DNA from: a virus
Lineage: Duplodnaviria > Heunggongvirae > Uroviricota > Caudoviricetes
Strand: one strand, 5' to 3'
Virus record (IMG/VR): IMGVR_UViG_3300009788_001732
Coordinates: 9,963-73,962 of that record
Length of the DNA stretch: 64,000 bases
Positions 1,470 through 28,266 of the stretch are shown here, one piece after another (the first letter of the stretch is position 1; each line of letters begins with the position of its first letter). Position numbers and translations under genes: made by a program. The notes under the pieces were generated by a model that saw only the letters and a list, made by a program, of their open reading frames with translations, did no database searches and was not told where the DNA came from.

Positions 1470-1787
1470 CTACTCTGACTTTGGGAGGATTTTCAACGGG
1501 TCCTGAGCATTTAGGATAGTGATTGGGTTCACTTTTCCGCCCATTAACATTGATCCACTGGCTGTTGCCATGCGTCCCAATGCCTCGGTCAATTTGTCTC
1601 GATCAACAATTTTGTCATCATCGACAGACACAATTTCCCACGAAACATACACACCTATTGCTGCGGCCATATCTTGAATAGCCCGCAATGTTTCTTCTAC
1701 ACAAGTGCGCGCACCAAAGCTTTTACGAAGTCGAGCAGCGAGGTCCATGTCTGGTCGCATCTGCAACGGTTGTTGTTCTTCACTCAT
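1470..1787 (-). CDS. hypothetical protein
   Basis: 105-aa ORF, tightly packed with its neighbours in the same orientation. Confidence 0.4.
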   Translation of the reverse strand: MSEEQQPLQMRPDMDLAARLRKSFGARTCVEETLRAIQDMAAAIGVYVSWEIVSVDDDKIVDRDKLTEALGRMATASGSMLMGGKVNPITILNAQDPLKILPKSE

Positions 1788-2284
1788 ACTTTCACCTCGA
1801 ATACAAAGAGATATTGATCAAACTGTTGACCGTAGAGATGTACCTTGGTTGGAAGAATCATAGCCGCTTTGAAACCTAATTTATTGAGCCATCTGCTAAC
1901 ATCATCCTCAGAGCTTGGTTGGCACTGATATTCTGGCACAGAGATTGTCATGTAAGGACAGCCCTTCTTTCGGGCTTCTTCATGTCCATGTGCAAGCAAT
2001 TTTTGTCCGACATATTGATTTCGATGAAGTGGACGCACACACAACTTGTGAATATGCAGCGTTGTTAATTTTGCTTTGAACTCTGGTAATCTAAATGCTT
2101 GTCGTTCATAGATAAGCATCCCTATTGGTACTTGACTCTTGAGAGCGACGATACACCCAGCCTGAGGATTTTCTGCGATTTGTCCCCACCACTCTGAGTC
2201 GGCTGGCGATTGTTCGTGACATTTCAAGTCAATATCATACAAGTGTACCAAGTCATTGTTAGTAGCTGGACGAAAATGAATCAT
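1784..2284 (-). CDS. GNAT family N-acetyltransferase
   Basis: Acetyl-CoA binding motif A pattern HRNQYVGQKLLAHGHEEARKKGC (Q/RxxGxG/A). I set the start at the internal Met (MIHF...), which avoids overlap with the upstream gene; the track start is 2317. Confidence 0.6.
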   Translation of the reverse strand: MIHFRPATNNDLVHLYDIDLKCHEQSPADSEWWGQIAENPQAGCIVALKSQVPIGMLIYERQAFRLPEFKAKLTTLHIHKLCVRPLHRNQYVGQKLLAHGHEEARKKGCPYMTISVPEYQCQPSSEDDVSRWLNKLGFKAAMILPTKVHLYGQQFDQYLFVFEVKV

Positions 2285-3306
2285 CGGTACGCTGGTCTTC
2301 CCAATTGACTGAACCAATCTTCTTCTTCAGAGCCATTACTTGCCATCCCAGTAGCACGTTTCTGAAGCATTTCAAACGCTGCATTGCTGTCGATGCGCGA
2401 CATGTCTTGAAATATGTATCCGTTTGAGATAGCGTCCCACAGCTTTTTGATGCGATCAAATAATTCTGTTTGGAACTTACCACTTACACGAGCCTTATGA
2501 TTGGCAACACGTATGAGTGGGCGCTCACACTCTCCCATAAATTTGCTGACAATTTCATCGATACAGACTACAACATTCTCATCGCCAACATTTTCACCCA
2601 TTAGCCATCCGTATATAGACAACTGAGTCGCCCAATCTTCGTCGCAAGTTTCAAGAAAGCCTTGGTTTATTGTGAGGCCGTTAAAATTCATTGCGAGATA
2701 TTTAGTGTGTTCCTTGTTATGACTTCGGCTTGGCTTACCTTCAGATTGCCGCTTGGCTATATTTCGTCCAACCCAATCAAAACCATCCCGACACAAGGCG
2801 TAACCTTTCATAGGGCTAGCACCATACTTGGAACAGTAGCCGCGAACCTTCCAATCAAGAATGATGTGAATGCCATTTACATTGATGAAACGACAGTCGG
2901 GCTTACCGAAGAGAGGGACGCCGTCCACAACATTATTAGCATCGAACTCGAATTGCGGGTCTTCTTTGGCATCCTTCATCAAGACCAGTAGTTCATCGTA
3001 TGAGCCAGTCTCAACATAGTTGTCGAAACAATGCAGACCCATTTGACGAGCCTCATCACGATTATGTTCTTCAACTTGTTGTTCAAACAACGTATTGAAT
3101 TCAAATTTCGGATTATGTGTTGGACCGAAAAGAGCCGAGTATAGATTCGATTTGACCCATGCATCAAAAGCAGACCCGACTGAAGCTGGTAAGGCTTGGG
3201 GCGTCCGAGGAGGTTTGTTATCTACCAAATATCGTAAGGCATACTCGGTAGGGTCTTTTTCCCAAAGCATGAATGCTGAGGGAGATAAAGCACGTGGTGT
3301 TCTCAT
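2281..3306 (-). CDS. PD-(D/E)xK nuclease-like protein (putative exonuclease/recombination nuclease)
   Basis: GKPDCRF followed ~15 aa later by IILDWKVRGY gives a PD...DxK arrangement. It lies immediately beside the DNA ligase gene. Motif-level call only. Confidence 0.4.
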   Translation of the reverse strand: MRTPRALSPSAFMLWEKDPTEYALRYLVDNKPPRTPQALPASVGSAFDAWVKSNLYSALFGPTHNPKFEFNTLFEQQVEEHNRDEARQMGLHCFDNYVETGSYDELLVLMKDAKEDPQFEFDANNVVDGVPLFGKPDCRFINVNGIHIILDWKVRGYCSKYGASPMKGYALCRDGFDWVGRNIAKRQSEGKPSRSHNKEHTKYLAMNFNGLTINQGFLETCDEDWATQLSIYGWLMGENVGDENVVVCIDEIVSKFMGECERPLIRVANHKARVSGKFQTELFDRIKKLWDAISNGYIFQDMSRIDSNAAFEMLQKRATGMASNGSEEEDWFSQLGRPAYR

Positions 3307-4500: not shown

Positions 4501-4971
4501 TTACGGGTCAGCCGGCGTAGGACTCCTGTCTTTCATATCAGGCTCAGGTACATTGATATTGTTGGCTTCCAGCACTTCAATCAACTGCACAAGGTATAAA
4601 CCCTGCCCTGTGATAATTATGTTTTGCATCTGAAGGTGTAAAGCCATGTCATTATAACCCTGACTTAACTGTGCATATCCCTTAATTAAACTTTCCATCT
4701 CCTCTTCAAGCTCATACACATGTTGCCGCTCCTCGTCAAGCCACTCTTCAAGCTCATGTACATATTGCTCAATGAAACTTTGCATTGTTTCTTCAAGCTC
4801 ATGCATATGTTGTGCTTCATGCTCTGTTAGCGCACCGATCCGCGCCGTACTGATTCGAGACTCATTTACCAGCCCCACAAAGGTACCTTCGGCCGACCAC
4901 ATGAGGAGAAGGCTCAAGCATGCTACTGTAAGACATACACTTATGCACAGTACAAAGATTTTCTTAGACAT
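4501..4971 (-). CDS. putative secreted/lipoprotein with HELEE repeats
   Basis: N-terminal signal-like hydrophobic segment ending in LTVAC (lipobox-like), followed by three ~12-aa repeats (HMHELEET / YVHELEEW / HVYELEEE). The repeats are visible as DNA repeats at 4680-4860. Confidence 0.4.
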   Translation of the reverse strand: MSKKIFVLCISVCLTVACLSLLLMWSAEGTFVGLVNESRISTARIGALTEHEAQHMHELEETMQSFIEQYVHELEEWLDEERQHVYELEEEMESLIKGYAQLSQGYNDMALHLQMQNIIITGQGLYLVQLIEVLEANNINVPEPDMKDRSPTPADP

Positions 4972-5584
4972 TCTGACACCTCCAAGCTAGTTCGTCAAAG
5001 CGATCACAGATTGCTATGTCCGTATCGTCGTTGTACAACGGGTTCCACGGGCGCGGTACAAGTAGAGATTCACCGCCTTCCGCGACAAAATTCTCACAGT
5101 TTTCTAGATGGTCGTCGACTAACATAACTCCCGGCTTCCCAAGAAGCCATTTACGAGGCGTGATGAAATATTGTCGGTGAATCCAATCAGGTAGGTTATC
5201 CCAAATCCAATGTAGTTTATCAGCATGAGACTGCGGGTCTTTTGTCGGTGTGGTCGCAAGGTACACCTCTTTAGGACCAACGAGTTCAGCCGCGCGTTCC
5301 AATAGCCAATTACATTGAGAGGTTTTAGGAGCTGTCCGCCATAGGTTTGCGTCTGTCACACCTTGCCAAAATGCAGGAATATTTGGGACATACCCACGCG
5401 TATTATCTTTGGTATACGGAACTTTGCCACCTAACATCTCGCACGCAGCTATAATGTTATAGCCTGCGTCTGTTGGAAACTTATCATAATCGAACGGCCC
5501 GACATCACATCCGTAGTGTTGTAAAACATGCAGTGTGAGACTGCTGAGCACATCATCGACATCTAGTATGATTCGTTTGATCAT
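4964..5584 (-). CDS. HAD-superfamily 5'(3')-deoxyribonucleotidase-like protein
   Basis: N-terminal ILDVDDVL (DxDxV/T HAD motif I) and a later VMLVDDH motif, as in phage and bacterial 5' nucleotidases. Confidence 0.65.
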   Translation of the reverse strand: MIKRIILDVDDVLSSLTLHVLQHYGCDVGPFDYDKFPTDAGYNIIAACEMLGGKVPYTKDNTRGYVPNIPAFWQGVTDANLWRTAPKTSQCNWLLERAAELVGPKEVYLATTPTKDPQSHADKLHWIWDNLPDWIHRQYFITPRKWLLGKPGVMLVDDHLENCENFVAEGGESLLVPRPWNPLYNDDTDIAICDRFDELAWRCQNV

Positions 5585-6677: not shown

Positions 6678-7232
6678 CTACATCACTCCCAGGTCAGTAA
6701 AGAAATTGCCAGACCCATCAGTGATAGGTGGGTTGGCAGGGTTCCAAAGTTCTCCGTTGACAAGTACATCAGGCGCACCTTCGACCACTCCTCCATGATA
6801 ACTCAATTGAACACCGGCTTCAACTAACATTTCCAAAGCTTCGTTTACTGAAGACTGCCAACGCTCTGGCGTCATTTGCATCCTCTCGCGGTGCATAACG
6901 ACAACCAAGACACCAGAGTTAATAATTGCTCTTGCACAATCACAGCAGGCTGCCCATGGTACATACATTGTAGATGCATAAACTTTACTGCCAGCCCGGG
7001 CCGCTTGATAAATAGCAGCACGTTCAGCATGTTCAAAGTAGCGATATTTATCAGGTCTAACTGTTGATCTTTCTTCAGTGAATTCCACGCCAGTCGGAAA
7101 GTTGTTGTTTCCCGTGGCGATAATTTCATTATTTGAAGACACCAAAACAGAGCCATTTTGGTTTGACTTATCTCTGCTCTGTGCCGCTATACAATACGCA
7201 TTCCGCAGGTATTCTTCTGTTTGTTCACTCAT
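6678..7232 (-). CDS. dCMP deaminase (cytidine/deoxycytidylate deaminase family)
   Basis: Zinc-binding HAERAAIY ... PCCDCARAI (H-x-E ... PCxxC). I placed the start at the internal Met (MSEQ...) to avoid overlap with the upstream gene; the track ORF runs to 7319. Confidence 0.85.
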   Translation of the reverse strand: MSEQTEEYLRNAYCIAAQSRDKSNQNGSVLVSSNNEIIATGNNNFPTGVEFTEERSTVRPDKYRYFEHAERAAIYQAARAGSKVYASTMYVPWAACCDCARAIINSGVLVVVMHRERMQMTPERWQSSVNEALEMLVEAGVQLSYHGGVVEGAPDVLVNGELWNPANPPITDGSGNFFTDLGVM

Positions 7233-7236
7233 TTGG

Positions 7237-7638
7237 TCAATACCTATCAATGGAGTCAAGTAATTCATCCAGGCTTGGTTGATTAAATGGGTCCCCATAC
7301 TTAGGCTTCCAATAATCAAACCAGTTTGGTTGTCGAAACAATCGTTTAACTTGCTCGTGTGTTCCCGCAGTCATAATCCAGATACCAATATTGTGTCGAT
7401 GCCACCTGGGCCACTTATCACGTTGTGCAGCCGTGTATTCATACTTGCCTTCGACTTTAACATCAACCCAACGTTGGCCATACTGTGAATGCCCCAAGTA
7501 CAAATCAGGGAACCCTTTCATGTACTTGTTGCCGTGCGTAACCTCAACTAACCAACCTAGGCCCTCAAGAAGAGGTCGAATCTCCCTGTCTCGAATTCTA
7601 GTTTCTTCTGAATTGCGGCTATATCTCTTGGCCATCAT
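7237..7638 (-). CDS. VRR-NUC domain nuclease
   Basis: GFPDLYL ... VDVK arrangement (PD-(D/E)xK, VRR-NUC-like). I set the start at MMAKRY, which gives an ATGA overlap with the polymerase stop; the track ORF start of 7719 lies inside the polymerase gene. Confidence 0.55.
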   Translation of the reverse strand: MMAKRYSRNSEETRIRDREIRPLLEGLGWLVEVTHGNKYMKGFPDLYLGHSQYGQRWVDVKVEGKYEYTAAQRDKWPRWHRHNIGIWIMTAGTHEQVKRLFRQPNWFDYWKPKYGDPFNQPSLDELLDSIDRY

Positions 7639-10388
7639 CCGGCCATCTCTGGCGGTTGAATCTTCAGAGTTCGGCTGCCACTCTTCTTCTCGGCCCAATT
7701 CTCTTGTTCGAGATTCCACGTCATACCGATGAGTGGTACTTGATCTCTGTAACTGACAACCTCGTTCTCAACAGCCTTACTAATACGCTCGGTCATCTCT
7801 GGTGTATTTACTACCATGATTTCATCATGGATATTAAATGGGGCCACCAATAATTTGTTGACGCCCGAGGGCTGCAAGTCCCAAATTTTACGCTGAACTG
7901 CCTTTGTAATTTGGCCGCCGGGTGATTGAATTTCGTGGTTTGCTGCTGCGCGAACATTGGCGCCCTGTAATCCAAATGCTGCTCCAAACAAAGCGGATGA
8001 GACAGCACCGCCCGCTGTCTGCACACCCTTGTGCATCGACCGCATGACTTTGACTTTCAGATTATTTCCTTGCCAGGCTTTAGGTACGTTGTGTGCCAAG
8101 TCATACAAAGCCTTACACACCATGTTTTCAAGTGCAAAGGATCGTTTAAACCCTAAAAAAGATGTCACTTCGTCTTCTGGATCATTCCAGATGATTTGTT
8201 TTCCATTGATTTGCCGCATGGATTGAAACATGTCAATGATTCTTTTGCGCGCCTTGGGTATGCCGGGAAACATATCGAAGAAGTTTTGCTCGGCAGCCTT
8301 AGCTGTTTCTTCATCGAGACCTTGTTTTCGTCTCAGAGTGGTCCAGTCGCCACCGTATATCAGTGCAAATACACCAGTCTTACCGGAGGTGTACATGTCG
8401 TGGCTTGTACCGTCTGACTCAATCACTTGATCGTAAGTGGCTGGCGGAAACATAGCCATGCCAAACAGCGCGTGAATCTTCTTTCTAAACCAGCCTTTGC
8501 CACCGCAGAGGCGACATTCTCGGAGGCCGTTTGGATTGCCATCCGCGCTAGTCTGACAATACATGCAGTTGAATTTGCCGACCCCACCAGTGCCGCCGCA
8601 TTTTTCGCATTCTTTACCGTGTAAACAATCCTTGCAATCTACTTTGTTGGTGAGCGCATTAAATAGGTCTTTGTCTTTGTATACAGCAGCAGCTAGCACA
8701 ACCTCGAATGAGTCAAAGTCGCCCCCGCTCAAGACCATTCCGTCCCATTTCAAAGGGAACATCGCTCGGACAGATTTATCGTGCTTAATCCCCTGTGCAT
8801 TAAGTCCCGATCCGCCAGACATTCGTGTCGAGAGTGTTCCTATAACATTGAAATCAGGATGAAACTTCTTGGCATAGAGAAGTTTTTGGTAGAGTTCGAC
8901 CTCTTTGGCGGCTGTTTTGATATCTAAGATTTGTCGTGCTCGTTGAGCGGCGGGGTGATTTCCGACTTTGATACCACCAGACTCATCGAATTCAGTCTTT
9001 CCAGAAGCGTCAATGCGGCCTTTTCCGTCACAGCGGAGGCACTTTGTATCGTGCGCATTGCCTGTTCCACTGCACCGAGTACATTCCGTATTGTGTTCTT
9101 CTTCCGTAAAACAATCTTTTGAGATATCCTGCAATACAGCCTTCTTGGTGGATTGTTCCAATACCAATGCTTCCATTTCGTCCATGCACTCAGTTATATA
9201 CGCACGAACTTCAGAAGGTCTGTTGATGTTGATTGGAGACGCCTGTAATTTGTGCCATGCATCAGCATACAATTTTTGTATACCAGTTTCATTGATCTCA
9301 AAACCATGCCAGCGCACTGCACCAACCATGCAAGCTAGTTCGCTGTCATCATCGCCGGGTTCCGGATTGTCAAAGTAACGACACAGCGCACGAGTGTACA
9401 CAATATCATCGTAAGCGTACTCTTGCGCATTTTCATTTGTATACCAATGGTCGATGTGATGTTCCAACCAATATGGCCACGCATTGCCGCGGGCCTTTTT
9501 CTTCTTATCGTAGATTGTCCAAGAATCATCAGCTCCGCTAGGTGCCATACCAAGGGCCGTAGGAATAAAACCTAGCCGCTTGTCGGGTGGGGATTTTCTC
9601 CGATCTACTTCAACATCTTTAAAATGATACTTTGGCTGCCAACCCAATGCATATTCGGCTAAGTATTTCAAACCGCCGGCTGGATTGAATCGCAAACAAA
9701 CATCCTTGAAATAAGCGTCCATATTGCCATCGTTATCTATTCGATCAAATACTTTCCACCGTGGACCATACGGGTCTTTCGACTTCGCAAAACAAATGCC
9801 GGGGAATTCAATACGCTGCTCCAATTCACGGGCTAGCGCATATGCCAAAACAGTGGGCACACGACGAATACGGATGTCACTTCGGGACATGGCGGTCTGA
9901 AATTTGCCCTTGCGCGACCACAGCATGAGATCACACGCCCGCTTCGGTTTAATGCATGGTCCATCTTGGCCAGCGTATTCATATTTAACTGCAATCTCTT
10001 CGATATGCTCCTCGGGAATCCAATCCGATGGAAGCAACTTCCAGATTGTGTAAATCTTCGCCACATGAAAATGATCAAAGGAAAGATTGAACCCGATGTA
10101 ATCGAGTTCCATCAACATTTCAAAGAGTTCGAGCGTCTTCCAGACAGGCTCTTTCCAGATGTGGTACAAGTAAATTGGGCCATCATCAATAGCAAATTGC
10201 CATAGCACCATGATGCTGTGTAAACCACAGGTCTCAGAGTCGATGAAAACTGCTTTACCAGCATCCACTTGTCGACGAATCTCATACAGATTCAAACCGA
10301 CCTTAATCTGGTCGATCACTTTCGCGCGATTGAAGGACTCGCGCGTAAAGACGGGAGCCTCTGATTGTATTTGATCAGTATCAAACAT
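7635..10388 (-). CDS. family A DNA polymerase with 3'-5' exonuclease domain and Cys-rich insertions
   Basis: Exo I FIDSETCGL; motif A GGDFDSFEVV (D.S..E); O-helix/motif B KTGVFALIYGG; motif C NIHDEIMVV. Two insertions carry CxxCxGxG repeats (see findings). Confidence 0.9.
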   Translation of the reverse strand: MFDTDQIQSEAPVFTRESFNRAKVIDQIKVGLNLYEIRRQVDAGKAVFIDSETCGLHSIMVLWQFAIDDGPIYLYHIWKEPVWKTLELFEMLMELDYIGFNLSFDHFHVAKIYTIWKLLPSDWIPEEHIEEIAVKYEYAGQDGPCIKPKRACDLMLWSRKGKFQTAMSRSDIRIRRVPTVLAYALARELEQRIEFPGICFAKSKDPYGPRWKVFDRIDNDGNMDAYFKDVCLRFNPAGGLKYLAEYALGWQPKYHFKDVEVDRRKSPPDKRLGFIPTALGMAPSGADDSWTIYDKKKKARGNAWPYWLEHHIDHWYTNENAQEYAYDDIVYTRALCRYFDNPEPGDDDSELACMVGAVRWHGFEINETGIQKLYADAWHKLQASPININRPSEVRAYITECMDEMEALVLEQSTKKAVLQDISKDCFTEEEHNTECTRCSGTGNAHDTKCLRCDGKGRIDASGKTEFDESGGIKVGNHPAAQRARQILDIKTAAKEVELYQKLLYAKKFHPDFNVIGTLSTRMSGGSGLNAQGIKHDKSVRAMFPLKWDGMVLSGGDFDSFEVVLAAAVYKDKDLFNALTNKVDCKDCLHGKECEKCGGTGGVGKFNCMYCQTSADGNPNGLRECRLCGGKGWFRKKIHALFGMAMFPPATYDQVIESDGTSHDMYTSGKTGVFALIYGGDWTTLRRKQGLDEETAKAAEQNFFDMFPGIPKARKRIIDMFQSMRQINGKQIIWNDPEDEVTSFLGFKRSFALENMVCKALYDLAHNVPKAWQGNNLKVKVMRSMHKGVQTAGGAVSSALFGAAFGLQGANVRAAANHEIQSPGGQITKAVQRKIWDLQPSGVNKLLVAPFNIHDEIMVVNTPEMTERISKAVENEVVSYRDQVPLIGMTWNLEQENWAEKKSGSRTLKIQPPEMAG

Positions 10389-11496: not shown

Positions 11497-12039
11497 TCAC
11501 GTGAAGATGCTGTATCCATATTTATGTATATCTGGATAAAGCACTTCAAGTTGTTTTGCTTGCGCTACTGTCAACAGCGTGCGCCAGTCTGGCTTATTCT
11601 CAGTAACACCCACCTTATCAAGTGCGACGAACGGTATGTTGTTTATCAAGAATCTATGATTCAAATTTTGTTCTAAGTTCTCGAATGCCAAGTTGAAATT
11701 GGTCCGTTCATGGTATCGCCAAAATAATGTTTCTCTTTTCTTGTGCTTCAAACCCTTATTGAAGACCCATGTTTTGAATGTTGTGTGCTTAGAATTTCGT
11801 AGCCAACAGGTTACAAGCCAATCATAAGGGTTGCGGACGACGCGGAATTTCCAATATGTATCGAACTGTTTGGCGGTGACACATCCGCCGTCGAGCATTT
11901 GGGTCACACTAATATGATGATCGCCATTAAAGTTTTGACTCCCTTCATGTTGACTCATGAGAGCCGCTTCAATTGCTCGACCGCCAGTGTGAGGCTCATG
12001 ACAAAATATATAATGATGTTTGTGATTAACTACACTCAT
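11497..12039 (-). CDS. sulfotransferase-fold protein, paralog 1
   Basis: HEPHTGGRAI (5'-PSB-like loop) and FRVVRNPYDWLVTCW (RNPxD..VS motif of sulfotransferases). Confidence 0.5.
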   Translation of the reverse strand: MSVVNHKHHYIFCHEPHTGGRAIEAALMSQHEGSQNFNGDHHISVTQMLDGGCVTAKQFDTYWKFRVVRNPYDWLVTCWLRNSKHTTFKTWVFNKGLKHKKRETLFWRYHERTNFNLAFENLEQNLNHRFLINNIPFVALDKVGVTENKPDWRTLLTVAQAKQLEVLYPDIHKYGYSIFT

Positions 12040-12575
12040 TAGAATTCGTACCCGTGTTTCACCAATTCATCGTTGAACTTTTCCTGAATCAATTGAATAA
12101 GCCCGGGCCTATAGTAAGTTTGGTATGGGCGGGGTTTCTTTGGTCCTACTTGCTCAAGTTGAGGTTTCGGAAATCCATTGTTCACCAGTGCGTCGGTGAA
12201 ATCTTGTTCGATGCGCTCGTACCGAAGGATAACGGTGGACAATGGGGCGTACTTCCAAAACAGTTCGTAACGAGTACGATCAGGGTTTCGGCGAATCCAT
12301 TCCGATTTACGACAGAGCTTCGGTACGTAGCGATCGAACGTTTCAGGACAGTGATTAAGATACCAGAAGGAAACAAACCAATCAAAGGGATTTCTCACCG
12401 ATGACATAATTAGGTCGCCCTCCTGGACTACTGTCCTGAAGGTTGAAATATCATGGTGGCTAACGTGAATTACTGCGCCAAGCCGCTGCATTGCATTCTG
12501 GCAAGCTTTGGATGCTGTCCGAGGCATCGCAAGAAAATGCGCGCGGCGTTCGCCGAAGTAAAGTGTGTACATCAC
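12039..12575 (-). CDS. sulfotransferase-fold protein, paralog 2
   Basis: AMPRTASKA and SSVRNPFDWFVSFW. It is co-linear with paralog 1 (HHISVT/HHDIST; LFWRYHE/LFWKYAP; C-terminal KYGY/KHGYEF), and the start/stop overlap at 12039. Confidence 0.5.
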   Translation of the reverse strand: MMYTLYFGERRAHFLAMPRTASKACQNAMQRLGAVIHVSHHDISTFRTVVQEGDLIMSSVRNPFDWFVSFWYLNHCPETFDRYVPKLCRKSEWIRRNPDRTRYELFWKYAPLSTVILRYERIEQDFTDALVNNGFPKPQLEQVGPKKPRPYQTYYRPGLIQLIQEKFNDELVKHGYEF

Positions 12576-13871: not shown

Positions 13872-16800
13872 TTAGTCATTTAGTCCGGATAACACGCCCA
13901 GCGTCAGTAGTTCAAGTTTCCGATTTTGTCGAAGCACTTTATGAACGTTCTCGTCGCTTGGGAGATGATAAATATCGACGATTTTACAACCTTTGTTCTC
14001 GTCCATTCCCTTACGATGAATTCTGTCTTCAGCCTGTGATCTCGACTCTGGATTGAAGTCATTACTCCAAAACACTGCCATGCGTGCTTCAGTCAGATTA
14101 AGACTCAATCCGCCTGATTGTGGATGAGCCACAAACGCCACCTGTTGATGATGCTCTAAATCTGCCCAATAGTGTAGAGGTTTGTCAGTCCTAATTGATT
14201 TTCCAGTATTATCAAATACTTGCCAACCACGGCCGTCGCACTGAACCACGGCCCAACCTTCCTTTTTACAGATTTGTCGAATACGATCATTGCTTCCTTG
14301 GAAGCCAGAGAAAATTACAATCCTGCCTGTTTCTTCACACTGTGCCAACCGTGCCTTTAGTTTGGCCTCCTTCGGGCACGGGGCTTCACGTGCGATCCGC
14401 TTGTACTTGGTGGTTTGACGAGTCCCTTTACATCTCGGACACGCTATGTATTTCTCTTCCAGAATATCAACGTACTCTTGGTCAAGCATGTCAATGGCTT
14501 GAATTGGGTCACTGGGCGCAGCAGGATCAAACCATGCTTTAACTTCTCCCGGCCGCTCTGAACCTGCGCAGGTTGGACAATTTCTAAGGCCATCATGTAT
14601 ATCTTTGTATATGAATCCGTCACTAAGCTCACGGAGCCATGTGATGCCTGTCATTACATTCGGAGCGCCCTTAGCAATTGTTTTTGCAACCCTAAGCATC
14701 GAAGGTGAGGGTTCACATATGTCAATCTCGTATACTTTGTCAGGCAAATCAAGAACATCCCGCTTGTGGATAACTGTAACTAAACCCGCGAGACGTTCGT
14801 ACATGTAGGACACTTCATCACTAGACCTTTCAAAGTCATGCACGGCTTTGTCAGGGTCGTCGATGTCCCACGCATGTGCGCCTTCATCTTTCAACTTAGC
14901 ACATTTCATGCACTTGTCCGGATTGTCTTTCCAGCCAATGCGTACATTGATAACGTTGTCGGGAAGTTCTTGCCGAACCATAAAACCTAAACGGGTTTCT
15001 AATTGATCCTTTGAACCCTCTTTCAGATAGCCCGGCCATGCAATTTCACACTGTTTCCACCAATCCAAGGGAGATTTTGGACTTGGGGTACCGGACATCA
15101 GAATCACGTAGCCATTATCAGTACCATACGTAATCCGAATCAAGTCTGCCAAATCTTGCGCGGCTTTGGATCGCTTTGCAGTCGGAGACTTCAGCTTTGA
15201 CGATTCATCAAAGATCACACCGGCTGGTACAGGATCAGAATCCAATCGCATCTCCATGAATTTGACCAGGCGTTCATACGTGGTTAAATAAATATTGTGT
15301 TCATTTGCATGGACAGTCTCGACGAGCGTATTCCCATCTTTGGGCTTGATCCATGAGAGCGGAAGTTTCCACTTTTCCCACTCTCGTTCAATATTTTCAA
15401 GCGATTTCAGCGGGCCAACCCAGAACCATTGGTCACAACCAGAACGTTCCATGACGGCTTGTGCTGCCATAGTATTATGCGTGACAATAAACTCATCTGT
15501 CACATAACAATGAGAATCAGAATTTACTCTTATACAAATACATTCCTCAAAGCCAATAGATTCAACTGATACAATGGCTCGGGTCGGTTGATACTTTGTT
15601 GGTGTCGTGTAAAGATTAGCTTTTCGAGACAAGAGGAAGGGTTTTGTACGGCTCCAAAATGATCCATTTATTCTATGGCTTGGTTGACCTATTCTTGACT
15701 CACCTTTATAAGTATAAATTGGTTTCTCTTTAAGACCCCGCGAACATGTACCACCAAATGATTGGATGAGAAACACCATTGCTGAGGCGAGTTTGTCTGA
15801 TGCTGAAGAAAATTCAATCCCACAAGTATTTAATGGCGTACCATCTGAATCTAATAACCCCTGCATCAAACATAAACGATTATCAACTGTATTGAAGAGA
15901 AATTCATTAGGGACAAATTTAGTAGCGGCTCTACATTCTTTTAGACCGTATGAATCAATAGCAGCACGAGTCCGAGGGCATCGAATTATATAAGCAATGT
16001 TTTCACCTTTCTTTGTTTGAGATGTAGGAACCAGGGGTGTGTCCATAAAGAAATTCAAACGGTCTATTGTCTCCTGATCAGGTACAGCCACACTATATGC
16101 GGGCAAATGCCCATTGCCCAGAATATACCCCATAACATATGGATGACATTCTAAGGCTTGCTTATCAAAATCAACCGGTTCCACCATTGGTATGAACCAT
16201 TTATTGTTGCCATTCCTATGCTGAAGACCCTTTGCTACAAGCTCTTGTAACTTGAAGACTTTATAACCTTGTCCCCGCCATTTACGCAGTGGTGTAATTA
16301 CTCGCCAAAGATGTTCTCCATCACATTCTGTAGATGACCTATCCGTAAAAGTAACTTTGAATATTTCTCTGCGCCCCTGTGGATGCAAACTCAAAACTTT
16401 GCACTCACCACCTTCTGGATCAACAAGACGTGATCCAACTTTCAAAGCACCCATAGTTGTCCAACCAGAGGGCGTAAGAACCGGCGTGGTTAATTGTGCG
16501 GCTTTCCCAACGCCCATTTCGGCACCCCAGATTTGATAATGATAAGTCAAACCTGTGTCAGCCATTAACTTTTGATGGTCCATCAGTGGCAAATGATCAG
16601 AATATTCACGTTGAATCAATTCCCGATCGAACCATTCGTAGGGGTCGGCGCCCATCAGATATTTCAACTGAAACCAGTTGCGCTGGCAGTTATCAACCGT
16701 CCAGACCTTTCGTGGCTGCTCACGATCGTAGCCATGCCACTTGGCGCCCGTCATCGCTTTGATTTCATTTTTGAGATGAAAGGGTGATTTCTTGAATTCA

Positions 16801-16913
16801 ATCTCTGTCGGGCTTACAACTAACGTGACCGGGTTTCTAATCCGCAGTCCGCCCTTTGTCTCTGTGTAGAGAACAGTTTCAAGAATCTTCTTTTGGGTCA
16901 TACCCATAATCAA
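13872..16913 (-). CDS. SNF2-family helicase (precursor containing an intein)
   Basis: Walker A GAEMGVGK|...|TMAAQA is split by a 343-aa insertion. Downstream are DESS (motif II), zinc-ribbon-like CxxC pairs and the helicase C-domain motifs QSGGLSLNLT and SQAEDRIHRKG. Confidence 0.85.
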   Translation of the reverse strand: MIMGMTQKKILETVLYTETKGGLRIRNPVTLVVSPTEIEFKKSPFHLKNEIKAMTGAKWHGYDREQPRKVWTVDNCQRNWFQLKYLMGADPYEWFDRELIQREYSDHLPLMDHQKLMADTGLTYHYQIWGAEMGVGKAAQLTTPVLTPSGWTTMGALKVGSRLVDPEGGECKVLSLHPQGRREIFKVTFTDRSSTECDGEHLWRVITPLRKWRGQGYKVFKLQELVAKGLQHRNGNNKWFIPMVEPVDFDKQALECHPYVMGYILGNGHLPAYSVAVPDQETIDRLNFFMDTPLVPTSQTKKGENIAYIIRCPRTRAAIDSYGLKECRAATKFVPNEFLFNTVDNRLCLMQGLLDSDGTPLNTCGIEFSSASDKLASAMVFLIQSFGGTCSRGLKEKPIYTYKGESRIGQPSHRINGSFWSRTKPFLLSRKANLYTTPTKYQPTRAIVSVESIGFEECICIRVNSDSHCYVTDEFIVTHNTMAAQAVMERSGCDQWFWVGPLKSLENIEREWEKWKLPLSWIKPKDGNTLVETVHANEHNIYLTTYERLVKFMEMRLDSDPVPAGVIFDESSKLKSPTAKRSKAAQDLADLIRITYGTDNGYVILMSGTPSPKSPLDWWKQCEIAWPGYLKEGSKDQLETRLGFMVRQELPDNVINVRIGWKDNPDKCMKCAKLKDEGAHAWDIDDPDKAVHDFERSSDEVSYMYERLAGLVTVIHKRDVLDLPDKVYEIDICEPSPSMLRVAKTIAKGAPNVMTGITWLRELSDGFIYKDIHDGLRNCPTCAGSERPGEVKAWFDPAAPSDPIQAIDMLDQEYVDILEEKYIACPRCKGTRQTTKYKRIAREAPCPKEAKLKARLAQCEETGRIVIFSGFQGSNDRIRQICKKEGWAVVQCDGRGWQVFDNTGKSIRTDKPLHYWADLEHHQQVAFVAHPQSGGLSLNLTEARMAVFWSNDFNPESRSQAEDRIHRKGMDENKGCKIVDIYHLPSDENVHKVLRQNRKLELLTLGVLSGLND
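15474..16502 (-). mobile_element. intein with LAGLIDADG homing endonuclease domain inserted in the helicase P-loop
   Basis: The intein begins AAQLTTPVLTPSG (block A-like, Ala1) right after GVGK. It carries the LAGLIDADG-like motifs VMGYILGNGH and LMQGLLDSDGT and ends IVTHN, followed by Thr+1; removing it restores GxGKT. I verified the nucleotide codons at both junctions. Confidence 0.8.
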
Positions 16914-17262
16914 TCGTTAATTCTCTATTCTTAGGAATGGAACGTAATGCAGTCACAATCAAAATTGAGTTGCCCTTGGCCTCTTCTGGTTCTACAACCT
17001 CACAATTCGGGTCGTTACTGTGATTCAAGTAACACCATGGGGCGAAAGGAACAAATCCGCTATCGTTGTCCCACTCGAATCCATATGTCCAGGCTTGCTC
17101 AAAGTCTTTCAGTGCCTGCGTAGCGCTTTCTTTGGCGCGTCCCCAGACAGGCTTGTATTTATAAATCCAGCCATAAATACACTGCCATTCATCTTTCTTG
17201 ATACATGAATATGCAAATACACCCTTACCATGTATCGGTGAATTATCGATGTAGATGTTCAA
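16879..17262 (-). CDS. minimal SET-domain protein (putative protein lysine methyltransferase)
   Basis: IHGKGVFA (GxG), YLNHSNDPNC (NHSxxPN), ELTIDYGYD (ELxxDY); only 127 aa. Confidence 0.8.
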   Translation of the reverse strand: MNIYIDNSPIHGKGVFAYSCIKKDEWQCIYGWIYKYKPVWGRAKESATQALKDFEQAWTYGFEWDNDSGFVPFAPWCYLNHSNDPNCEVVEPEEAKGNSILIVTALRSIPKNRELTIDYGYDPKEDS

Positions 17263-17780
17263 TGGTGTTTGTACTCCAGCAGCAAATAGGTACCGTCAGC
17301 CTGTGATTTCTGCTCATAGTCATTCCAGACAGCAGACAGTCCTTCTTGGACAAACAAGTCGTGCATCTGATTGAAACCGGCTCGTATAGTTAGCTGGCTA
17401 TGATTTGTTCCTGTAACAATAGCGTCGCGCCATTGCTGGATCGTCCCCGAAAGAATTACTAACAATACCTGTCGTATCTTTGTCTCCGCGCGCGTAAAAG
17501 ACATCCCGGAACACGATTCCAGAATGTCCAATATATCAATTTCATCCACGACAGTCAATACCGAGAATGAAACGTGCGCAAGTAATGCGGGTGGCAAACT
17601 AGCTGGAGCTTCTACATCCTGTGTCGCAGCTAGAATTGATAGAAAACGTTCAGCATTACTGAGGTTCTTTGCCGTATTATCGACGCCGTGAGTAACTTTG
17701 TGATCCAACACTTCATCACAAGCTTGTAACAATACATCGAAGTCCACGGCAGGTCGGGCGATAAAAGTTGAGCGCATCAT
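17259..17780 (-). CDS. hypothetical protein
   Basis: 173-aa ORF with no recognisable motif. Confidence 0.4.
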   Translation of the reverse strand: MMRSTFIARPAVDFDVLLQACDEVLDHKVTHGVDNTAKNLSNAERFLSILAATQDVEAPASLPPALLAHVSFSVLTVVDEIDILDILESCSGMSFTRAETKIRQVLLVILSGTIQQWRDAIVTGTNHSQLTIRAGFNQMHDLFVQEGLSAVWNDYEQKSQADGTYLLLEYKHH

Positions 17781-18808: not shown

Positions 18809-19552
18809 CTAAACGGCAAAACCTTGCTTACGCATGAGTCTAAGATGCTCGTTACGAATAGCCTCTCCGCCAACACTGAATTTACCAGTCTCAATGCCAA
18901 TTTCAGTTGCCAACATCTTCAAGACCAACTCATCTGGATTCAAATACAAATCACCAGGCTTGGCATCTGCATACTCAGTGTCCAAAGGCAACGTGCCAAT
19001 TGGGTGTGCGAAATTGATCAAGCCAATAAGTTTCGCCACGGCGGCTGCTGGACGGTTTGGCCGACCGAAATTTGGCACAGTTACGAGGCCAGCAGAGCCA
19101 CCACCTGTTAGATTGGAGCCGTCGATTATAGTCAGCGCGAGTCTCTGACTTCCTACACTGCCCATAAAAGTAAAAAGCATCTCGCCAGCGCTCAAGGCGG
19201 CACCGCCTACAGATATGTCATTGTCCACCCAGCCAGTAACCACACCATTGGCCGCTGAGTTGATACCTGTTTTAACAGTAGCGGGCGTTGCATTAAATGC
19301 AATCCCTGTTACAGAAAAAGTTTCGCCGATGAACGTTTCAAATGTCAAATCATAGGTACCGGCCGAAACAGTCGGGATATGCTGTGCTATAGCATTCACT
19401 TCGTTATTTGCAGCCACCTCATTGATGTATGCAGGGTCACCAACCCTTGCTTCAAGGTTTTCGATGTATCTTTTCAAAACTCGCTTTGTTGCAACTGCGT
19501 CGAGAGTAGGATCAACTGAACTCAAGTTCTTTAAGTCTGAAATCATTCCCAT
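18809..19552 (-). CDS. paralog family A, member 1 (unknown function)
   Basis: Conserved N-terminus MGMIxDLKNLxSVxPTLxAxATKRVLKRYIExLE and conserved C-terminus NFGRPNRPAAAVAKLIGLI...LVLKMLATEIGIET...RNEHLxLMRKQGFA, with a divergent middle. An AAGGAA SD precedes the start; the second Met may be the true start. Confidence 0.5.
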   Translation of the reverse strand: MGMISDLKNLSSVDPTLDAVATKRVLKRYIENLEARVGDPAYINEVAANNEVNAIAQHIPTVSAGTYDLTFETFIGETFSVTGIAFNATPATVKTGINSAANGVVTGWVDNDISVGGAALSAGEMLFTFMGSVGSQRLALTIIDGSNLTGGGSAGLVTVPNFGRPNRPAAAVAKLIGLINFAHPIGTLPLDTEYADAKPGDLYLNPDELVLKMLATEIGIETGKFSVGGEAIRNEHLRLMRKQGFAV

Positions 19553-19623: not shown

Positions 19624-20373
19624 CTAGATAGCGAAGCCTTGCTTACGCATAAGTTCCAGATGCTCGTTACGGACACCAGCGCCATTGTCGCTTACGCCAA
19701 GTTCATCAGTCTCAATGCCAATTTCAGTTGCCAACATCTTCAAGACCAACTCATTTGGATTCAAACGCAAATCGCCTGGTTCACCTATGTAATCATTAGA
19801 GATTGGCAATAAGTCAATCGGTTGTGCGGCGCCGATTAAGCCGATCAGTTTCGCCACAGCGACTGCTGGTCGGTTTGGCTGTCCATAGTTGATGACACTT
19901 ATTGGGCCGAACGGCTCACTTAGGCCCGTGTCATCAACTCTAATCAGTGGCTGTCTTTTATTTGCGAAGGGGCCAGTTGCAAAAGAAAAGTCCGTGTCTT
20001 CGACATTCAAAGTGCTTCCAGACACTATAATGTCATCGTTTGTCCAGCCAGTAATTTCAACAGCGGTGGCGACGGCGTTAATACTTGTTTGAAATAGACT
20101 AGCTGATGTCGAAGTAAATAATGTCGGAATAGAAATAGTTTCACCATTAGCTAAATCTATTATCAAAGTAAATTCACCACTAGGTAGACCCTCTGTAAAT
20201 TGTGGTAGGCGGTGTACTTCGATTCTTTCAGATACATCCTCATCAATATATTCAGGGTCACCATGCACTGATTCAAGATGCTCGATGTATCTCTTCAAAA
20301 CGCGCTTTGTTGCATTTGCATTGAGAGTCGGATTAACTGAATCCAAGTTCTTCAAGTCTGCTATCATTCCCAT
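19624..20373 (-). CDS. paralog family A, member 2
   Basis: Shares the family N- and C-termini. Its 5' and 3' flanks are about 85-90% identical at DNA level to member 1 over ~150 nt. Confidence 0.5.
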   Translation of the reverse strand: MGMIADLKNLDSVNPTLNANATKRVLKRYIEHLESVHGDPEYIDEDVSERIEVHRLPQFTEGLPSGEFTLIIDLANGETISIPTLFTSTSASLFQTSINAVATAVEITGWTNDDIIVSGSTLNVEDTDFSFATGPFANKRQPLIRVDDTGLSEPFGPISVINYGQPNRPAVAVAKLIGLIGAAQPIDLLPISNDYIGEPGDLRLNPNELVLKMLATEIGIETDELGVSDNGAGVRNEHLELMRKQGFAI

Positions 20374-20392
20374 GTTGTTGCCCTATGCAAAG

Positions 20393-20464
20393 CTGTGCAG
20401 GAAGGATTTGAACCTTCATCGTAGCGGTTAACAGCCGCCCGTCTTACCATTAGACCGCCGCACA
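20393..20464 (-). tRNA. tRNA-Asn (anticodon GTT)
   Basis: Manual cloverleaf: acceptor tgtgcgg/ctgcaca (one G-U), D-arm gtct-aatggta-agac, anticodon arm ggcgg-ctGTTaa-ccgct, T-arm gaagg-ttcaaat-ccttc, 72 nt, no encoded CCA. Confidence 0.65.
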
Positions 20465-20948
20465 TCAAATAGGCTCTTGTTTTCTGTACTCATACCAATT
20501 ACTGCGTTTACGATTCAAGTTACATAATGCCTCGTCACGCTGTCTCTCAGTATTGTAGCGCCGATACACGCACCAATCAACGCAAACCCACGTTTGTCGA
20601 CCACAGTAACGGAACTCAATGGCAAATAGCTTTTTCTTAGATTTCTTCCTCCGCGGACGTTCTCGTTCCTCAATCTGAGGTCCTTTATCGCGGAGAGCTT
20701 CCCAATCATTCCGACTCATGTTTCTGGCACGCCCTTTCGGCTGGACCACGCTTACTATGCCGACTGATGATTGACTCGCCGCCAGCTATATTAACTGCAT
20801 AGTATCTAGTCCCCATCCCTGGGAGTTTTCCAACACTTTCGACTATCTTATAAAGACCACAGCGTGACCTCCAAGTGCGTCGTTTTGCACAAGGTGTTTC
20901 ATCTTTCTGTGCCCTCATCCAATCGAGCTTCTGCTTTGTCTTGGACAT
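20465..20948 (-). CDS. two overlapping small ORFs; possible degenerate homing-endonuclease-like gene
   Basis: ORFs 20706..20948 and 20465..20749 overlap in different frames. The first has CGLYKIVESVGKLPGMGTRYYAVNIAGGE, which is loosely GIY-YIG-like. The pair lies between tRNA genes. Confidence 0.25.
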
Positions 20949-21018
20949 CTTGAAGTACCCTACAGCAGTTTCGATCCGCTTTCTCCGGGATGAAAGCCCG
21001 ACGACATAGCCATTAGTC
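20947..21018 (-). tRNA. tRNA-Glu (anticodon TTC), candidate
   Basis: Manual fold: acceptor gccctac/gtagggt (G-U closing), anticodon arm tcggg-ctTTCat-cccgg, T-stem agcgg/ctgct (one G-U) with an atypical T-loop atcgaaa, D-stem only 3 bp. Confidence 0.45.
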
Positions 21019-21046
21019 CAGTAGGGCTGAAGCTAGCGGAGGGACT

Positions 21047-21119
21047 TGAACCCACAACCTGCTGATTACAAATCAGCCGCTCTGCCAATTGAGCTACGCT
21101 AGCTTATATGGCGATTGGT
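21047..21119 (-). tRNA. tRNA-Thr (anticodon TGT)
   Basis: Manual fold: acceptor gctagcg/cgctagc, D-arm gctc-aattggca-gagc, anticodon arm gctga-ttTGTaa-tcagc, T-arm with one T-T mismatch, 73 nt. Confidence 0.65.
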
Positions 21120-27717: not shown

Positions 27718-27741
27718 TGAATGTTGAGAGGAGCGACCTTA

Positions 27742-28266
27742 ATGAAAAAGAGCGACCACACTATGCACGACGATCCGAGGACGGCCGAGCGTATACTCTG
27801 TAATGTCACTAGCACAAAGAACGCTAATACTGACCGCGATGATGTTATGCACGGCGATTTAGCTAGCACAGCGAAGGGGAGTGGCGCCCGCCGAAGTATT
27901 GGCAAGCTTTCTTTATCACTTGTACCTTTTCATCTCTTGGCTGGATGTTGCCGAGTTTTCATGGGCGGTAAGATTAAATATGCCGAGTGGAACTGGGCTA
28001 AAGGGATGAAATGGTCATATTGTTTCGACTGTACGCTGCGCCACCTATTTAAATGGTGGTTCTGTGGCGAAGATATTGATCCAGAGTCTGGCGAGCATCA
28101 CCTGGATCATGTACTTTGCAATCTGTTTATGCTTCGCCACTATGTGACCAATTACAAGGAGGGAGATGACCGTCCGCCAACCTACGCCGGGTTTTCAAAC
28201 TCTATGGATGATTTCTCGAAGTTATTTGACGAAGAAGATTACAAACGACGCAATGGTTACACATAA
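27742..28266 (+). CDS. hypothetical protein
   Basis: GAGGAG SD 7 nt upstream of ATG 27742; the Cys/His/Trp-rich core has no motif I can name confidently. Confidence 0.4.
   Translation: MKKSDHTMHDDPRTAERILCNVTSTKNANTDRDDVMHGDLASTAKGSGARRSIGKLSLSLVPFHLLAGCCRVFMGGKIKYAEWNWAKGMKWSYCFDCTLRHLFKWWFCGEDIDPESGEHHLDHVLCNLFMLRHYVTNYKEGDDRPPTYAGFSNSMDDFSKLFDEEDYKRRNGYT

Follow-up and report, generated by a model that had tools for sequence, protein, structure and literature searches.

A minimal SET-domain protein, probably an accessory methyltransferase, encoded next to an SNF2 helicase gene in an uncultured tailed phage

Methylation of protein lysines by SET-domain enzymes is characteristic of chromatin control in eukaryotes and of certain bacterial effectors. 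One minimal form is viral: vSET (A612L) of Paramecium bursaria chlorella virus 1 (PDB 1N3J/3KMA) is a eukaryotic-virus enzyme of about 120 amino acids (aa), directed at histone H3K27 according to its PDB molecule name, that has neither a pre-SET nor a post-SET domain. The KMT2/MLL enzymes of the SET1-Trithorax group (MLL1, PDB 5F5E; MLL3, PDB 5F59) are proteins of several thousand residues with a post-SET zinc cluster and WRAD partners. Outside eukaryotes, single-domain SET lysine methyltransferases include Go1-SET of Methanosarcina, cpnSET and NUE of Chlamydia, and RomA/LegAS4 of Legionella; these are cellular genes, and several encode secreted effectors that act on eukaryotic histones. Go1-SET methylates MC1-alpha and cpnSET methylates Hc1, in both cases a DNA-associated protein of the organism itself (PMC3980110). 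Single-domain SET proteins of 100-130 aa have also been annotated in tailed phages, among them gp259 of Stenotrophomonas phage Moby (103 aa, "SET domain-containing protein"), several entries from uncultured Caudovirales phages, and ORF62 of Stenotrophomonas phage Ps15 ("SET domain protein"; PMC9025141). The literature that we searched holds genome annotations only and no functional study of any phage SET protein. Here we describe a SET-domain gene in IMG/VR virus record IMGVR_UViG_3300009788_001732, from which a stretch of 64,000 nucleotides (nt) was analyzed (positions 9,963 to 73,962 of the record; hereafter the window, whose own numbering is used throughout).

The gene occupies 16879..17262 on the minus strand and encodes 127 aa; the open reading frame (ORF) has exactly the limits given in the original prediction, which was made from the letters of the DNA without database searches. 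It starts with TTG, which is credible because homologs at four other loci (L088-L091) have ATG at that exact codon, with N-termini that align (MN[IV]...). Its product matches the Pfam SET family (PF00856) across the entire profile (positions 1-105 of 105, protein residues 12-120; E 3.2e-13; score 50.4 bits, curated cut-off 22.4). Searched by sequence, the PDB yielded the SET domains of MLL3 (E 1.4e-7) and MLL1 (9e-5), followed by chlorovirus vSET (2.4e-3), and in these alignments the GxG, NHS and DY residues pair with their counterparts. The NHS residues and the tyrosine of the DY motif, for which misalignment had been raised as a possible flaw, align with their equivalents in MLL1 and MLL3. 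With a profile of 31 relatives as the query, the corresponding values were 6e-14 for MLL1 and 4e-10 for vSET, and the family consensus SxIHGxGvF, NhsxxPNC and EeLtidY lined up with SPIHGRGLF, NHSCEPNC and EELTYDY of MLL1.

Structure prediction agrees with the profile searches. An AlphaFold2 model computed from the alignment of the 31 relatives has a mean predicted local distance difference test score (pLDDT) of 86.8, and Foldseek comparison of this model with the PDB gave 354 matches at E<=1e-3, of which the best 50 are all SET domains. MLL1 and MLL3 head the matches (E 2e-9, best 1.9e-9), and vSET is matched with a template modeling (TM) score of 0.75, normalized to vSET. The gene is under purifying selection: relative to the 83%-identical homolog in locus L003, the nonsynonymous rate (dN) is 0.085, the synonymous rate (dS) 0.488, and dN/dS 0.17. 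The ORF is a genuine SET domain, and the match lies beyond chance. Every feature of the SET superfamily that we checked is present in the sequence, namely a full-domain profile score, the GxG, YxG, NHSxxPN and ELxxDY motifs and, in the model, the SET beta-fold; the proposal of a minimal SET protein of about vSET size, with its catalytic motifs intact, is thereby upheld.

The three signature motifs fall at the residues where they had been reported. Motif I, IHGKGVFA (residues 10-17; 17212..17235, minus strand), contains the GxG of the S-adenosylmethionine (SAM)-binding loop and aligns with SPIHGRGLF of MLL1. NHSNDPNC (residues 80-87; 17002..17025, minus strand), by its motif the pseudoknot and SAM-binding segment, aligns with NHSCEPNC. 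ELTIDYGYDP (residues 114-123; 16894..16923, minus strand) includes the predicted catalytic Tyr119 and aligns with EELTYDY of MLL1 and, among the PDB matches to MLL1 and MLL3, also with EELCYDY. A YxG motif at Y30-G31 aligns with Y.G of MLL1. Eight positions are invariant in the 31 family members (G12, G14, G31, N80, P85, N86, C87 and Y119), H81 is nearly so, and E114, L115, T116, I117 and G120 are conserved in at least 90% of them.

Beyond this core there is little else in the protein. It has no pre-SET and no post-SET domain, and its C-terminal end lies 8 residues past Tyr119. It reads NHSN rather than NHSC and has no Cys-rich tail; an MLL-type post-SET zinc cluster is therefore not possible. 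What makes it longer than the family norm is a predicted helical insert of 20 residues, VWGRAKESATQALKDFEQAW (residues 39-58; 17089..17148, minus strand), in the variable SET-I region. Among family members this insert is limited to the window protein and two homologs (P0001 and P0002); a third homolog (P0004) has a different insert, and the others have none. Model confidence is lowest across residues 31-60, with means of 76, 55 and 75 for the successive 10-residue blocks and a helix at 44-60.

Set against the described systems, the phage protein shares with vSET its viral origin, its minimal size and the GxG, NHSxxPN and catalytic-Tyr motifs. The kinship is nevertheless distant by both the single-protein and the profile scores given above, MLL SET domains score better, the C-terminal motif YGYDP differs from that of vSET, and the phage host, unlike that of the chlorovirus, presumably has no histones. 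By sequence and by fold the KMT2/MLL enzymes are the nearest solved relatives, with near-identical motifs, but the 127-aa phage protein has none of their zinc cluster, partners or bulk. Taken together, sequence and model indicate a protein that would work like vSET and the MLL-type SET core and that is best classed as a member of the SET superfamily, not of KMT2. Compared with the SET proteins of Methanosarcina, Chlamydia and Legionella, it is phage-borne, shorter and encoded in a replication operon. The SET of phage Moby and its relatives were not retrieved with the window protein as the query; they are 30-35% identical to the SET of a myovirus clade (L006), which in turn is about 35% identical to that of the window. 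Unlike the window gene, the Moby gene does not lie beside a helicase gene.

The claim that SET proteins are rare in phages also stands. Two SET queries against 50,697 deposited phage records found 10 matches: two are records of one uncultured megaphage of 735 kb, and the others are Stenotrophomonas Menderavirus phages. They had nonetheless been annotated before, as in Moby and Ps15 and in several UniProt/BFVD entries named 'SET domain containing protein [uncultured Caudovirales phage]' (A0A6J5L8Y2 and others), which are found beside many giant-virus SETs. A word-indexed search with the single window protein detected 3 homologs only (99%, 83% and 41% identity), and the family came to light only when a profile was run exhaustively against 1.84 billion cluster representatives. 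This search yielded 983 SET proteins at E<=1e-3, of which 46 reach E<=1e-10; nearly all of the best are 95-130 aa long. With the 31-sequence profile, about 47 clusters scored above 100 bits, from metagenomes only. Typical members of the subfamily are 100-112 aa, smaller than vSET. Bacterial SET proteins of 130-175 aa, from metagenome-assembled genomes (MAGs) of Ignavibacterium, Pirellulales, Myxococcales and Planctomycetota, score below the phage subfamily. At least 116 IMG/VR contigs carry SET relatives at roughly 30-35% identity. PHROGs holds no annotated family for the phage SET, the best match being phrog_28741 (function unannotated; E 8e-5). From these searches, phage SET genes appear to be rare but previously annotated, with the window protein belonging to a distinct subfamily seen only in metagenomes.

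An origin of all the IMG/VR relatives in giant viruses of eukaryotes was considered and dismissed for the largest clade, the only one examined, which encodes a tail sheath. Among the long homologs there are multi-SET proteins and fusions of SET to NUMOD4-HNH and to MnmA, and none in which SET is joined to a helicase or a DNA methyltransferase. The homologs with unusual architectures (P0015, P0027, P0115, P0030 and P0045) combine SET with a NUMOD4-HNH homing endonuclease or with an MnmA-type tRNA thiouridylase, or else repeat the domain, with five SET domains in a protein of 4152 aa and eight SET matches in one of 799 aa.

In the window, the SET gene is flanked on its own strand by a gene for a 173-aa protein (17259..17780), located 5', and by a gene for an SNF2-family helicase of 1011 aa (13872..16907; phrog_62, by PHROG and Pfam matches), located directly 3'. 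The original prediction had the start of the SET gene overlapping the SNF2/intein gene. Such an overlap exists and spans 29 nt (16879..16907, minus strand), but it lies at the 3' end of the SET gene, where the helicase ATG is at 16907; the start of the SET gene instead overlaps the stop of the 173-aa gene (ATTGA, ...CA-TTG-A...). In the near-identical loci L001 and L002, the gene caller likewise begins the 1011-aa helicase within SET. Judged from the sequence, the 29-nt overlap suggests translational coupling.

The flanking order is conserved, and its occupancy by SET is not. The order 173-aa gene, SET, SNF2 is kept in L001-L004, L088 and L091 with reading frames that overlap or abut, and two partial contigs retain the 173-aa gene with SET (L089) or SET with SNF2 (L090). 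L003 and L004 have this order with an intein-less helicase of 668 aa, and L091 has three additional small ORFs ahead of SET. The SET protein is the most diverged product of the module: it is 83% identical to its L003 counterpart, where the neighbors are 89-93% identical, and 50-54% identical to those of L088 and L091, where the neighbors reach 66-77% (for L088, 54% for SET, 66% for the 173-aa protein and 76% for the helicase). Such divergence is as expected for an accessory or host-facing gene. Among more distant relatives, the 173-aa gene directly adjoins the helicase gene in L098-L101, and in L092-L097 a DNA N6/N4 methyltransferase gene (PF01555) sits between the two.

To take a census of this slot, 80 further IMG/VR loci (L102-L181) were fetched with a profile of the 173-aa protein, and the interval was classed by hidden Markov models, with intervals of <150 nt counted as empty. 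Across the 89 loci that have both flanking genes, the slot holds a DNA methyltransferase in 63, is empty in 16, holds SET in 5 and holds other ORFs in 5. The five SET-bearing slots are those of the window, L001, L003, L088 and L091, and none comes from the 80 added loci. The DNA N6/N4 methyltransferases, 356-564 aa long, occur in L092-L097 and in 57 of L102-L181; no homolog of them is encoded within the 64-kb window. This junction of the 173-aa and helicase genes thus appears, in these sequences, to behave as a hot spot of gene exchange. Because the slot in relatives mostly holds a DNA methyltransferase or nothing, we regard SET as an accessory gene gained by one sub-lineage.

A second phage lineage places SET in a similar position. 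Of the first 80 IMG/VR SET loci, 25 form one clade with a tail sheath, in which SET is immediately 5' of an SNF2 helicase of 584-586 aa that also belongs to phrog_62 and is about 22% identical to the window helicase. This helicase, used as a query, retrieved 284 contigs of up to about 321 kb. We fetched 80 of these 284 jumbo-myovirus loci (L182-L261): SET is upstream of the helicase in 65 and absent in 15, and in 62 of the 65 it lies <=20 nt from the helicase start. The window lineage has a tape-measure gene and no sheath gene that we could see, whereas the second lineage is a jumbo myovirus; two deeply diverged phage lineages would accordingly each have an accessory SET gene immediately 5' to the gene for an SNF2 helicase. 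In other loci SET adjoins genes for PolA (L029, L077 and L084), PolB (L072) or terminase (L013), and in L005 and phage Moby it lies amid small early-type ORFs. Gene neighborhoods suggest that the association of SET with DNA-metabolism genes is recurrent, not universal.

The 173-aa protein is spread far more widely than SET, with 88 homolog clusters, and has no match in Pfam or PHROG. Its model (pLDDT 92) finds its best PDB folds in ThyX, the flavin-dependent thymidylate synthase (E 5e-6, TM 0.5-0.66, about 13% identity); no canonical ThyX RHR motif was seen by eye. The protein is acidic and lysine-poor. We considered and rejected it as a histone-like SET substrate, given its acidity, its few lysines and its ThyX-like predicted fold. 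From the model it is probably a nucleotide-metabolism-type protein, and the comparison of loci indicates that, throughout a large group of phages, its gene is conserved as the core companion of the helicase gene, to which it would be translationally coupled.

The helicase itself is 76% identical to that of L088 and 93% identical to the intein-less one of L003, and comparison with the latter delimits an intein of 343 aa (15474..16502, minus strand) with LAGLIDADG-type motifs, inserted in Walker A between GVGK and T. The intein is absent from the 668-aa alleles of L003 and L004 and present in L088. Its first residue is Ala (not Cys/Ser), it ends in THN followed by Thr, and a W (EHLW) and a C (SHCYV) are placed in a manner reminiscent of class-3 (WCT) inteins. 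Regions of the intein match terminase, primase and helicase-loader PHROGs.

The wider window is that of a tailed phage, as had been claimed, with genes for tape-measure, major head and portal proteins. The eukaryote-like character ascribed to the neighborhood was not borne out. What surrounds SET is an ordinary phage replication and nucleotide module, with a family-A DNA polymerase (PolA), two ParB-like proteins, an exonuclease, the SNF2 helicase, a dCMP deaminase (6678-7319, minus strand; library match) and a DNA ligase whose match is below the cut-off. The window also encodes a DUF5906 primase-helicase, an RNase T-like exonuclease and an SPFH (Band 7) protein. Two adjacent small sulfotransferase-like ORFs (11497-12039 and 12039-12575, minus strand), kept in L001-L004, match Sulfotransfer_2 below the Pfam cut-off (E 2e-3) and phrog_3347 at E 3e-6. 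A dATP/dGTP diphosphohydrolase (27721-28266, plus strand; PF18909, E 1e-26) and an NT5C-like nucleotidase (4964-5584, minus strand; below cut-off) are present as well; together with the deaminase and the ThyX-like protein, these predicted enzymes hint that nucleotide pools are altered or that the DNA contains a non-canonical base. Depletion of GATC sites, which would be a sign of restriction avoidance, is not seen in the window (266 observed vs 270 expected).

Other features include a GNAT-family acetyltransferase (1784-2317, minus strand; Pfam E 7e-10), by its family a second potential protein- or small-molecule-modifying enzyme of the phage, and a cluster of three tRNA genes, Asn-GTT, Glu-TTC and Thr-TGT (20392-21104, minus strand). 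Two tandem paralogous genes encode 247 and 249 aa (18809-19552 and 19624-20373, minus strand) with common N-termini (MGMI[SA]DLKNL...) and C-termini (...NP[DN]ELVLKMLATEIGIET...RNEHL.LMRKQGFA) and have no family match in our library scans. A DNA search with the 8 kb around SET found no match in the 50,697 phage records, so this is not a known phage; the near-identical contigs L001 and L002 come from JGI metagenomes. Two observations concern more distant relatives of the group. L100 and L101, in an assembly labeled as a Planctomycetota MAG (GCA_003389355.1), are on a 225-kb contig, encode a 173-aa protein 45% identical to that of the window and adjoin an AbiE toxin-antitoxin pair; the contig is a weak clue to the host, or a binned phage or prophage. 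In L098 and L099, a TROVE/Ro60-like protein with a vWA domain is encoded near the replication module (positions 12482 onwards).

On the basis of sequence and model, we consider it probable that the gene encodes a minimal SET-fold, SAM-dependent protein methyltransferase and has accessory status, and likely that the enzyme is active on protein lysines. The SET protein would be made alongside the products of phage DNA-replication and nucleotide-metabolism genes from one operon, one sub-lineage of a widespread phage group having gained it at the junction of the 173-aa and helicase genes. During infection it might methylate a lysine of a DNA-associated protein, either a nucleoid or defense protein of the host or a replication protein of the phage, for example the helicase encoded next to it, and variation in SET-I, including the 20-residue insert, could tune substrate recognition. 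Its role would then be one of host interaction or takeover, not an essential step of replication. The original prediction had proposed a lysine of a host nucleoid or translation protein, or of a phage protein, as the possible target. A slot shared with a DNA methyltransferase, together with SNF2 adjacency in two lineages, points to DNA-related or host-interaction roles, and since prokaryotic SETs with known substrates act on DNA-associated proteins, we count this for a DNA-associated target; as the substrate class, however, such a protein of host or phage is only a tentative suggestion. Several points weigh against this picture. The adjacency of SET and SNF2 could reflect inherited gene order or a favored insertion site, the conserved pair in the window lineage is the 173-aa gene and the helicase gene, with SET dispensable, and many phage SETs lie in unrelated contexts. 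The predicted fold of the upstream partner is of the nucleotide-metabolism type, not that of a chromatin protein, and the phage is uncultured and known from sequence alone. Lacking the C-terminal segment that completes the lysine channel in larger SETs, the enzyme may also, by analogy, need a dimer or a partner; vSET dimerizes.

The slot itself invites another explanation, in which SET methylates and disables a host defense or nucleoid protein and so does the protective job that a DNA methyltransferase does in sister phages. SET lies in the exact slot of the DNA N6/N4 methyltransferase of 63 of the 89 related loci, the window encodes no homolog of that enzyme, and SET evolves faster than its neighbors, a frequent trait of host-interaction genes. 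A common slot does not imply a common function, however, and 16 loci have nothing in the slot and 5 have unrelated ORFs there; the window takes in only part of a contig that is at least 104 kb long, so that a DNA methyltransferase may sit elsewhere; PADLOC matched no defense-related model to SET or its neighbors save a generic SNF2 likeness to ZorD and DpdE; and the literature searched offers no precedent. We regard such a counter-defense substitution as rather unlikely. A bolder combination, in which lysine methylation is an infection weapon, SET has replaced the DNA methyltransferase in its slot and perhaps in its protection of the phage, and the enzyme, possibly with the SNF2 helicase, methylates a host nucleoid or defense protein, is more speculative still.

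That SET replaces the DNA methyltransferase in the literal sense, with histidine, a small molecule or nucleic acid as its substrate, seems very improbable. Its position would fit: the slot is one shared with DNA methyltransferases, flanked by genes for a ThyX-like fold and a helicase, and the genome encodes many enzymes that modify nucleotides. The protein nevertheless conserves the catalytic Tyr and the aromatic residues that are typical of SETs acting on lysine, the nearest structures are all histone-lysine methyltransferases, and we know of no SET enzyme that methylates nucleic acids. For histidine there is a precedent in SETD3, which shows that a SET fold is able to methylate this residue (PMC11462206). 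Equally hard to credit is a remnant that has lost catalysis or only binds SAM, or a selfish gene of no benefit to the phage. The gene is indeed dispensable within the phage group, its product is very small and without a post-SET segment, and in some relatives SET is fused to a homing endonuclease or lies next to one (P0015 and P0027; L091). Against this stand the dN/dS of 0.17, catalytic residues that are all invariant over about 50% sequence divergence, and retention with tight translational coupling in several diverged phages. A functional lysine methyltransferase encoded by an accessory gene remains the reading that we prefer.

The compact phage SET subfamily, about 100-127 aa long with its catalytic residues intact, should be convenient for biochemistry and structure work. 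To previous annotations our analysis adds a comparative context, the DNA-methyltransferase slot and the adjacency of SET and SNF2 in two lineages, that provides testable leads. If lysine methylation does serve as an infection weapon, the recurrent SET-SNF2 pair of two unrelated lineages would be a functional module, and the protein would be the first protein-lysine methyltransferase of a phage to be described with a function in host takeover or anti-defense. Its substrate, if found, would show whether phages manipulate host nucleoid or defense proteins by lysine methylation.

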